Assembly (NCBI GenBank): GCA_023246755.1
Contig: JAHFHU010000001.1
Coordinates: 6,072-70,071, forward strand
Length of the DNA stretch: 64,000 nucleotides
Reading direction: 5' to 3'
From: Candidatus Magasanikiibacteriota bacterium
Lineage (GTDB): Bacteria; Patescibacteriota; Patescibacteriia; Magasanikbacterales; 2-02-FULL-50-9b
Part shown: one piece after another, positions 30,838 to 33,800 of the stretch
Layout of the letters: the number at the start of each line of letters is the position of its first letter
Numbering within the stretch: the first letter of the stretch is position 1
Notes under the pieces: model-generated
The model's input: the letters and a program-made list of their open reading frames with translations, nothing else
The model's database searches: none
What the model was told of the DNA's origin: nothing
Translations under genes and position numbers: made by a program

Positions 30838-33800
30838 TTAGATATCCAAATTTTTCACCGTCTTCGCATGCGTCTGAATAAACCGTTTACGCGGCTCAAC
30901 TTCAGCGCCCATCAAAATATCAAAGATTTCGTCAACTTTCGCGGCATCCTCGATGCGCACAATTTTCATCTGACGATGCTCAGGATTCATCGTTGTTTCC
31001 CACAGCTGATCCGGATTCATTTCACCCAAACCTTTGTAGCGTTGGATATTCACCTTCACACCACCAACAACCATGGCCTCAATCGCCTCTTCGTTTGCCG
31101 CCTCAATTTTTTCAGCCGCCTTTTCCGCGAGCTGCTCTTCAGTCATTTCATCTTCAGCAACTTCATTTTTCTTCGCACGCGCCGCTTTGTTTGCTCCCGC
31201 AATTTTCACCATCTCATCAATCGTCGTCGCTTTTTCATCATCAGAAAACGCATAGCGCACTTCTTTGCCAATCTGCACACGATAGAGCGGCGGTTGCGCG
31301 ATGTAGACATGTCCCTGCAAAATCAATTCCGGCATGTAACGATACAAAAATGTCAGCAACAAAGTTCGGATATGTGATCCATCAACATCAGCATCCGTCA
31401 TGATCACGAGACGATGATAGCGCAACTTTGAAATATCAAACTGCTCGCCAATATTTGTGCCAAGCGCGATGATGAGCGACTTCAATTCATTGTTGCCCAA
31501 AATTTTATCGAGACGCGAACGCTCGACGTTGAGAATTTTTCCTCGAAGCGGAAGAATCGCCTGAAATTCACGATTACGGCCCGTTTTGGCACTATTGTGA
31601 ACGAACACACCCGATGCGAGCGCAAAATTGTGTGTGCGAGCAACCTCAAGATCAAAAACATCGCGCGTTTCTGCCGTTCGCTGAACATGCACAACACGAT
31701 GATTGTGATGCACAACCGCATCGAACAATTTTTTTGAATCCCCTTCAAAAAACCGATCAACCAATGTCTGAAATTTAATCAAATTTCTGTTGCCCGACAT
31801 TTTGCGGAACAATTCATATTGCCCAGAATCCACAAAATTGTTTGCTCGATAAATTTCATACAAAGCAGCGAGCGCTGCATTGAGATATGTTTTATCATAC
31901 GCAACTTTTCGTTTTGCTCGAAATTCTGTTGTCCACTGCTTTTTTGTTTCTTTGCTCCGCCATATGCGCAACGAGGAATCATTCCACTGCGTGCGTGCGG
32001 CAAAAACATAGGCATCGCGCACTTCGGGATGATCTTTAAAGTACTGTGTGGTTCTTTCGGATTGTTCAACACGATGCGTTTCATCTGACCAATATTCTTG
32101 CGCTGACTTCACCAGTCGTTGAACGACTGATTTTTGATACTCTGGATGCATTTTACAAAAATCCTTGTACTTCTCCATCATGTATTGCTTGTATTCTTCG
32201 TTCTTCCACTGCTCTTTTGCTCGCACACTCAACTGCTCACGCATCGCAGGCGCGCTCATTATCGCACTCATCAGCGCACGAAATTTTGGATCCGCATGTG
32301 CCGCACGAATTTTCTCCAAAACCTCCGGTCGTGACATTGTTTCACGTACTACAGCTTGGTGACGCGCCAAATGCTCTTCTTTTGATAACCGAAGAATATT
32401 ATCCGGATTGTTGTTCAGTTTCCGAAAGTCGACATGATGTCGATGCGCACCGCTTGTGATTGTGTAAACACCCTGTTCTAAATTAAGTTCGTCAGAGCGC
32501 ATGTGTGTAAAAACATATCGATGCTCTTTTGGATCAAAAACCATCTCGTATCCATCAATGGTGATGCGCCCTCCAATTTTTGAAATTTTTCGATACAACG
32601 GCATAAGCGATTGATCCGCCCGCAGATTCTGCGCTTCACAATAACTACCATCACGAAGCATGAATTTATGATCGGGGGTGCACAAAATTTCTTCGCCATT
32701 ATCAAGCACAACTTTAACTAATTGAGCGTTTTGCTTAGTTCGGCGCACCTGTGAAATTTCACCCACACCAACAGATCCATCATCGCGAACGGTATAACAA
32801 AAATTTTTCTTACCCGCCTGTTCTTCTACGATCAGTTCAAAAAAATTTAGCTCACGACCATCAGTCAACGCAACCTTCGTTTCCCCTACAAAACAACCGC
32901 CTGCGGAATCGCCCTCAACAATATACAGCTCCGATTGCGTTGCATCGCGACTTGAACAATCCGCCAATTTACCCGGCAAGGTGAACCCTTCGAGCGCACC
33001 TTTGCGGAGCACACTCTCGCGCGCAACACGCGCAGCCTGTCGAGCCTTTTGCGCCAAAATAACTTTTCCTAAAATCGCCTCCGCTTCTTTTGGATGTTCT
33101 TCCAAAAAAATCCCGAGCGCATCCCCCACAACCGTTTCAACCGCACCTTTCGCTTCGGTATTACCAAGTTTGCCCTTGGTTTGCCCTTCAAATTGCGGCT
33201 CTTCGATACGAACAGAAATCACCGCGGTCAGCCCCTCACGCACATCATCCCCGGTCAAACTCTCGTCTTTCTCCTTAAGCAAATTTTTCGCGCGCGCATA
33301 CGAGTTGATCGCCCGCGTCAACGCATTTCGAAAACCCTGTACATGTGTTCCACCCTCAGGATTGATAATCGAATTGGTAAATGCAAATAATGTTTCCTTA
33401 TAATCATCCGTGTATTGCAACGCAACATCAACCTGAACATTTTCAGCCTCTTTCTCGATAAAAAACACCGAATCGTGTTTCGCCTCTTTCGCGTGATTCA
33501 AATGGCGGACATACGACATGATGCCACCTTCAAAATAAAATGTCATCGCACGAAATTGCGTTGCGTCGCGCTCATCGTAACACGAAATTCGAACGCCTTT
33601 CGTTAAATAGGCGTGCTGCCGCAATCGATGAATGATCGTGTCAAAATCGTAATCAATTGTCTCAAAAATTTTATCATTCGCGCGAAACGAAATCATCGTT
33701 CCCGTGTCTTTCGCGGTTCCTGTTTTTTTAATTTTGCCCGTTGGCTCGCCGTTTCGATATTCCTGCTCCCACGTCGCACCCTCACGACGAACTTCCGCCT

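Follow-up and report, generated by a model that had tools for sequence, protein, structure and literature searches.

A probable class 1 GyrB-family intein in the gyrB gene of a Magasanikbacteria-like bacterium

The gyrB gene located in the 64,000-nucleotide stretch of contig JAHFHU010000001.1 analyzed here (the window) encodes a DNA gyrase subunit B (GyrB) precursor of 1122 amino acids (aa). Within this precursor lies an insert of 434 aa that, judging by its sequence, is very probably a GyrB-family intein of the canonical class 1 type, bifunctional and positioned at the insertion site of the Ssp GyrB intein. The original prediction had placed an intein responsible for about 430 extra residues at 31594-32895 of the window, and these coordinates proved to be exact. 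The intein is a fairly divergent member of a widespread and already described family, a point that the original prediction did not make, and does not represent a new kind of system. The features of the gene and of the intein are compiled in Table 1.

The insert in gyrB and its splicing domains

The gyrB reading frame is single and uninterrupted, and the element is in frame within it, as had been proposed. A Pfam search of the precursor identified the HATPase_c, DNA_gyraseB, Toprim and DNA_gyraseB_C domains, with the Toprim match picking up again at precursor residue 872. The insert comprises precursor residues C438 to N871 and lies between EGDSAGG and SAKTGRN. Its last residues are GVFVHN, and the translation confirmed both the cysteine directly after EGDSAGG and the FVHN terminus followed by SAK that the original prediction had described. 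Removal of the 434 residues in silico left a GyrB protein of 688 aa to which solved GyrB chains align at E~1e-207, and the alignment of this spliced extein with chain 8s7k_B is free of gaps over the junction, so that the in-silico splice proposed earlier as a check yields a contiguous GyrB. The closest intein-free orthologues are 675-690 aa in length, contain a contiguous GDSAGGS(S/A)K and are colinear with the spliced extein, whose 688 aa fits within their range. The same 1122-aa protein is present in public assemblies. The insertion point is six residues past the catalytic Glu of the Toprim domain; without splicing the precursor should thus be inactive, which would make precise splicing obligatory.

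Table 1. Coordinates of the gyrB gene, the intein and its regions in the window
Feature	Position	Strand	Basis
gyrB precursor open reading frame including the intein, 1122 aa	30838..34206	-	List of open reading frames; TIGR01059 gyrB E=2e-278; Pfam domains
N-extein, GyrB residues 1-437, last motif EGDSAGG (Toprim)	32896..34206	-	Aligns to 8s7k_B up to the junction
Intein, 434 aa, Cys1 to Asn434	31594..32895	-	PF14890, TIGR01445, TIGR01443; 482 gyrB-encoded homologues
N-terminal splicing (Hint) region, intein aa 1-100, blocks A and B (Thr73, His76)	32596..32895	-	TIGR01445; Foldseek
Cys33 codon	32797..32799	-	
Cys72 codon	32680..32682	-	
Predicted nuclease domain of the HNH (ββα-metal) type, intein aa 101-190	32326..32595	-	PHROG profiles; model topology; BFVD matches
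HNH core motif, intein aa 151-179	32359..32445	-	Translation; conservation
All-helical region, intein aa 191-395, internal repeats LSxxAKxQWxNxEY	31711..32325	-	Model; profile-profile repeats
C-terminal splicing region, intein aa 396-434, blocks F and G	31594..31710	-	TIGR01443; invariant residues
C-extein, mature GyrB residues 438-688 plus stop codon, first residue the nucleophile Ser+1	30838..31593	-	

The insert was then compared by itself with intein profiles. It matched Pfam Intein_splicing PF14890 (E=5.5e-20, 72 bits with a cut-off of 35.8), TIGR01445 intein_Nterm over aa 1-79 (E=5e-12, 46.6 bits with a cut-off of 24.5) and TIGR01443 intein_Cterm (E=3.5e-5). When each species was represented by one genome, at least 298 genomes, bacterial and archaeal, were found to carry a relative of the intein; locus-level comparisons below refer to the best 80 loci among these genomes, and residue conservation refers to 78 aligned relatives. 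All of the splicing blocks named in the original prediction (A, B and F/G) were found and their key residues are invariant. Block A starts with C1, block B reads LC-T73-PD-H76-KFM (a TxxH motif, Thr73-Pro-Asp-His76), block F reads D415-LEVART-H422-NF, and block G reads VFV-H433-N434, after which comes Ser+1. C1, T73, H76, D415, N423, H433 and N434 occur in 78 of the 78 relatives, and the presence of Cys1 implies class 1 chemistry.

An AlphaFold2 model of the intein, built with 52 homologues in the alignment, had a mean predicted local distance difference test score (pLDDT) of 87.8. Using Foldseek to compare this model with solved structures, we obtained the Ssp and Npu DnaE, Ssp DnaB and Mtu RecA inteins and other mini-inteins (E~1e-6, probability 1.0). 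A sequence search of the PDB with the intein alone returned only weak matches to DnaE and NrdJ inteins and none for the nuclease. The corresponding PDB profile search returned gyrase and topoisomerase chains only and was uninformative, because the alignment rows still included extein flanks.

The window copy is quite likely to be competent for splicing. After translation, the Hint domain (aa 1-100 together with aa 396-434) would fold, and Cys1 would undergo an N-to-S acyl shift aided by Thr73 and His76 of block B. Attack of Ser+1 on the thioester would produce a branched intermediate, Asn434 would cyclize with the aid of His433 and of Asp415 and His422 in block F, and an O-to-N shift would join EGDSAGG to SAKTGR, giving a functional 688-aa GyrB and a free intein of 434 aa.

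The central endonuclease and the helical region

The center of the insert had been described as an HNH-like His/Asn cluster rather than a LAGLIDADG domain, and the cluster lies where Table 1 gives the core motif. Three PHROG families annotated as HNH endonuclease match intein aa 105-191 (E=4.1e-9, 3.6e-7 and 8e-4). Within the motif, H153, H154, N161, N162, N166, H175 and H179 are invariant in the 78 relatives and D156 is found in 76 of them. The AlphaFold2 model shows the ββα topology (strands 151-154 and 167-170, helix 172-184), and a separate model of intein aa 100-396 reached a pLDDT of 94.3. When the central domain was compared with BFVD, a collection of predicted viral structures, numerous HNH homing endonucleases matched (probability 1.0, E values between 1e-4 and 1e-2), the top match being a protein of Bacillus phage SP-15 that has a Hint domain (287 columns, E=3.7e-6). 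Pfam HNH_3 (PF13392) matches 20 of 52 relatives, with a best E value of 1e-5. In a classification of His-Me finger nucleases, the group named "Gyrase subunit B intein" forms cluster 22, assigned to PF13392, with 84 bacterial and seven archaeal members (Jablonska 2017, PMC5714182).

An endonuclease of the LAGLIDADG type was ruled out, with no LAGLIDADG family in Pfam matching either the window copy or the 51 relatives scanned. Since the motif, the fold and the family-level evidence agree, the nuclease of the window copy was filed as HNH; both the sequence and the model support an HNH-type rather than a LAGLIDADG endonuclease.

The region between the nuclease and the C-terminal splicing region is modelled as a run of helices with pLDDT >90 and fits its family profile at E=3.7e-78. 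The repeat type in the family profile is (P)ExxxxLSxxAKxQWxNxEY, with at least three divergent copies of roughly 35-40 aa each. Profile-profile repeat detection paired residues 214-252 with 290-332 (P=1.2e-9) and 214-252 with 253-291 (P=8e-6), while scanning the single sequence for repeats gave a marginal signal (top score 32; shuffled sequences had a mean of 23.3 and a standard deviation of 3.7). There was no Pfam match to the helical region of the window copy at an E value of 1 or below. The NUMOD1, NUMOD3 and NUMOD4 domains were likewise absent, with no match at E values up to 0.01 in 52 members or up to 1 in the window copy. In I-HmuI-like enzymes the HNH domain is tethered to a separate DNA-binding region (PMC3384342), and by analogy with these enzymes aa 191-395 are presumed to be a DNA-recognition module.

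The free intein could then act as an HNH-type homing endonuclease, in which His154 would be the general base, Asn166 would have a structural role, and His175 and His179 of the helix would be metal ligands. Its target would be an intein-free gyrB allele, nicked or cut near the conserved sequence GGNGAYTCNGCNGGNGG/AGYGCNAAR (the slash, here and below, marks the insertion point or splice junction), with the helical repeats of aa 191-395 recognizing the sequence. Repair by recombination with the occupied allele would then copy the intein in. That the window intein splices, that its nuclease is active and where it would cut are all things that we infer.

Distribution, empty alleles and mobility

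The protein search produced 482 relatives of the intein, whose identity to the window copy is at most about 50%; the best matches reach E=1e-142 at 100% coverage. All of the listed matches that have host Pfam domains or a source name are gyrase B, with "intein-containing DNA gyrase subunit B" as a frequent name, while some relatives are unnamed partial fragments consisting of the intein domain only. The best 80 loci contain inteins of 427-438 aa, all in open frames, with 46-53% identity to the window intein. Their hosts include Patescibacteria of the candidate phyla radiation (CPR), Saccharibacteria, DPANN and Methanosarcinales archaea, Omnitrophota, Elusimicrobia and others. The junction GDSAGG/C...HN/S is found in 78 of the 80 loci, and in all these hosts the target DNA around the insertion site is conserved at the first and second positions of its codons. 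When the window intein was compared with profiles of the four sub-regions of the family, all four were significant. A six-frame hidden Markov model search of the window for another intein of the GyrB-intein family found none.

Some of these loci show variations on the common arrangement. In two of them (L061 and L078), an intein of the same family is shifted one residue downstream (GDSAGGS/C...HN/CKMGRD), and the residue at +1 is Cys in place of the usual Ala. Another (L008) has Ser, not Cys, at intein position 1 (SAGG/SFSGETQ...). Two gyrB genes contain a second, unrelated intein, which in L022 ends ...LLHN/TDGAHIRS near the Toprim DxD region and in L051 ends ...ILAHN/SLDEALAG in the N-terminal ATPase motif.

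The spliced extein is 81-89% identical to the 11 closest GyrB clusters. Going by source names, one of these 11 is from Candidatus Magasanikbacteria, as are several matches at 66-68% identity, and Patescibacteria are found further out; the host looks, from its sequence, like a Magasanikbacteria-like CPR bacterium. In ten of the 11 (P0269-P0278, with loci including L083, L084 and L085) the insertion site is empty, and the DNA of one such allele (L083) reads ...GTTGAGGGAGACTCTGCAGGTGGC/AGCGCGAAAACCGGACGC... at the insertion point. The remaining relative, P0279 (L082:16-2721; GCA_964623315.1, CAZUSU010000026.1), has a mini-intein of 158 aa at the same site, from which the HNH and helical regions have been deleted. 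Its Hint-N region is 83% identical to that of the window copy (79 of 95 residues), far above the ~59% between the window copy and other family members; in Hint-C, 19 of 23 residues are identical, and the extein identity is 83%. The gene order gyrB, hypothetical gene, rodA is common to the window and its relatives, including the mini-intein locus.

Residues +2 and +4 of the extein were also compared across these alleles. The window, the mini-intein allele and a single empty allele (P0275) have SAKT, eight of the nine other empty alleles have SSKQ, and the last one (P0278) has SAKM. In a quick neighbor-joining tree of the exteins, produced without support values, the window adjoins an empty-site allele. 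GC content at third codon positions is 0.39 in the intein and 0.47 in the extein, compared with 0.49±0.06 in ten other open reading frames. The simplest reading is that the intein was present early in the clade and that several precise losses and one nuclease loss followed; alternatively, homing moved the intein between members of the clade. The model of Goddard and Burt (1999) is said to predict that presence, decay and absence coexist during a homing cycle. The patchy pattern of full-length, mini and empty alleles seen here is typical of such a cycle, and a CPR clade in which the three stand side by side offers a clean natural example of it. The original prediction had also called the element potentially mobile, which is plausible because ten of the 11 closest relatives are empty and the family is spread across phyla.

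Several results weigh against a bifunctional homing intein of this kind. The window copy had no Pfam match to PF13392 or PF01844 even at an E value of 1, so that of the profile comparison suggested in the original prediction the intein part held (PF14890, TIGR01445 and TIGR01443), while PF01844 did not match and the relevant family, HNH_3, was found among the relatives and not in the window copy. Comparison of the central domain with solved structures by Foldseek was non-significant (E>1), with the HNH domains of type I-F Cascade and of I-PpoI as the top hits. The window copy differs from the family at five of 70 endonuclease columns that are conserved in at least 90% of members (W127Y, L133R, Y247C, Q265A and N274H), and when the two regions were scored separately, more departures were found in only four (HNH) and three (helical) of the 77 other members. 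Flanking DNA, compared with that of the mini-intein allele, shows no local rise in identity and no co-conversion tract of the kind that would be a sign of recent homing. With five conserved columns changed and a sister lineage that has already deleted its nuclease, the endonuclease may be decaying even if splicing is intact.

The best of the rival explanations builds on these points. It holds that the intein is competent for splicing but has an inactive HNH endonuclease, being fixed, decaying and late in its homing cycle, and that it is retained only because an imprecise loss would destroy gyrase. The number of departures at conserved HNH and helical columns, which is among the highest in the family, fits with this explanation, as do the loss of the whole nuclease from the 158-aa mini-intein of a relative with 83% extein identity and the lack of a co-conversion signal in the flanks. 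However, the HNH motif has all of its residues intact, the 297-aa central region is fully open and is modelled at pLDDT 94, and the helical region still fits its family profile (E=3.7e-78). We regard this explanation as possible but doubtful, and lean, from the sequence, toward a nuclease that is currently active.

A second alternative is that the intein serves as a conditional switch of gyrase maturation, for example a redox switch in which Cys33 and Cys72 could trap Cys1 in a disulfide. C72 is invariant in the 78 relatives and is located directly before the Thr of block B, and C33 is kept in 76 of the 78, even though the canonical splicing residues include neither of them; in addition, the insertion is in the active-site motif of Toprim, so that unspliced precursor should be inactive. 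Yet the closest relatives function without an intein, and the patchy presence of the intein suits a selfish element better than a regulator, which makes a switch of this kind most improbable. It would be an unlikely, if more far-reaching, outcome that either the helical Trp-repeat array is an undescribed modular DNA-recognition array, swapped between Hint plus HNH scaffolds (for example from gyrB to gyrA), or Cys33 and Cys72 tie the maturation of gyrase to redox conditions in these bacteria with reduced genomes. The idea that the insert is an insertion domain of GyrB specific to the lineage, a chimera produced in assembly or an element of the LAGLIDADG type has nothing in its favor other than the extra length and is refuted by the intein profiles, Hint fold and junction residues, all of which fit an intein, by the identical 1122-aa protein in public assemblies and the gyrB-hypothetical-rodA synteny common to relatives, and by the failure of LAGLIDADG families to match the window copy or the 51 scanned relatives.

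Comparison with known systems and neighboring genes

GyrB inteins with HNH nucleases have reportedly been known since 1997, and the Ssp GyrB intein is a standard tool in protein engineering. The GyrB-intein family being long known, the window copy has little discovery value in itself. It does have practical consequences, since 1302 nucleotides have to be spliced out here when genes are called or phylogenies are based on gyrB, and as a divergent (~50% identity) intein with Cys1 and Ser+1 it could be explored as an orthogonal tool for splicing.

The bifunctional GyrB-family intein proposed here most resembles the Ssp GyrB intein of Synechocystis sp. PCC 6803, a member of the same family, with which it shares the host gene, the insertion point, the GVFVHN/SA junction and the Cys1 and Ser+1 chemistry. 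The two differ in host, a cyanobacterium in the one case and a CPR/Patescibacteria-like bacterium in the other, and the window copy shares only about 50% identity with any relative in the databases. The Ssp GyrB intein is about 435 aa long and so similar in length to the window copy. In a comparison with a provisional sequence of the Ssp mini-intein, not one from a database, the identity of the window copy was 65% for Hint-N and 63% for Hint-C. Dalgaard et al. (1997) reportedly described the Synechocystis GyrB intein with an HNH-type endonuclease. A literature search for GyrB inteins together with HNH returned nearly nothing, and the tentative attribution of an HNH nuclease to the Synechocystis intein draws on the title of the 1997 paper and on the classification of Jablonska 2017 (PMC5714182). 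The terminus of the Ssp GyrB C-intein and the residues that follow it have been given as GVFVHN/SA (PMC2794532), and splicing in E. coli is documented for the Ssp GyrB intein as well as for a mini form of it with the nuclease deleted (PMC3620165).

The nuclease was also compared with phage HNH homing endonucleases of the HNH_3/I-HmuI-like type. These share with the window copy a ββα-metal core, HH..D..NN.P.N...H...H, which follows a β-hairpin (GYEMV...FTH), and a separate DNA-binding extension C-terminal to the nuclease, although in the window copy DNA binding by this extension is presumed by analogy. They are free-standing or intron-encoded, whereas the nuclease of the window copy sits within the Hint domain. 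The C-terminal module of the window copy also differs from theirs, being a Trp-containing helical repeat with no match to NUMOD or other Pfam domains. The last metal ligand is His in the window copy, a true HNH, unlike in I-HmuI, where it is Asn.

Inteins of the partner subunit, GyrA, provide a further comparison. Those examined (the gyrA intein of L034, together with P0187, P0189 and P0215) contain Hint-N, HNH and Hint-C regions homologous to those of the window copy, but are found in another host gene and at another site (GQGNFG/C...HN/SVDGD). The L034 gyrA intein matched the GyrB-family profiles for Hint-N (E=1.6e-41), HNH (E=1.2e-31) and Hint-C (E=6e-21), while its helical region had no match to the GyrB-family profile, which is consistent with a different DNA target. 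The L034 locus is from a Micrarchaeota genome that has an intein in gyrB as well as the one in gyrA, GQGNFG/CFTKDT...GVFVHN/SVDGD, which is in frame 2 and ends at about nucleotide 8981. Relatives of the HNH module that were sampled from a library of 1.8 billion proteins were mostly GyrA inteins, along with one intein in a T4-like portal protein. Mxe GyrA of Mycobacterium xenopi, also a class 1 intein of a gyrase subunit, is a natural mini-intein in gyrA that lacks an endonuclease and occupies a different site.

An Rfam scan of the window returned no match, and several open reading frames in the neighborhood of gyrB, including those at 29054..29992 and 34277..35272, had no Pfam match. A 199-aa open reading frame (30005..30604, plus strand), also without a Pfam match, is on the strand opposite to gyrB, within a GC-richer stretch of about 845 nucleotides (0.53-0.57) between gyrB and a downstream gene of 312 aa. 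It shows 29% identity (E=2e-18) to a 208-aa gene located at the same place in the empty-site loci L084 and L085. No homologue was detected in the mini-intein locus L082 or in L083, in both of which the ~300-aa gene comes almost immediately after gyrB. Farther away, at 46000..52317 on the minus strand, is an open reading frame of 2105 aa whose only recognized domain is a C-terminal PP2C phosphatase.

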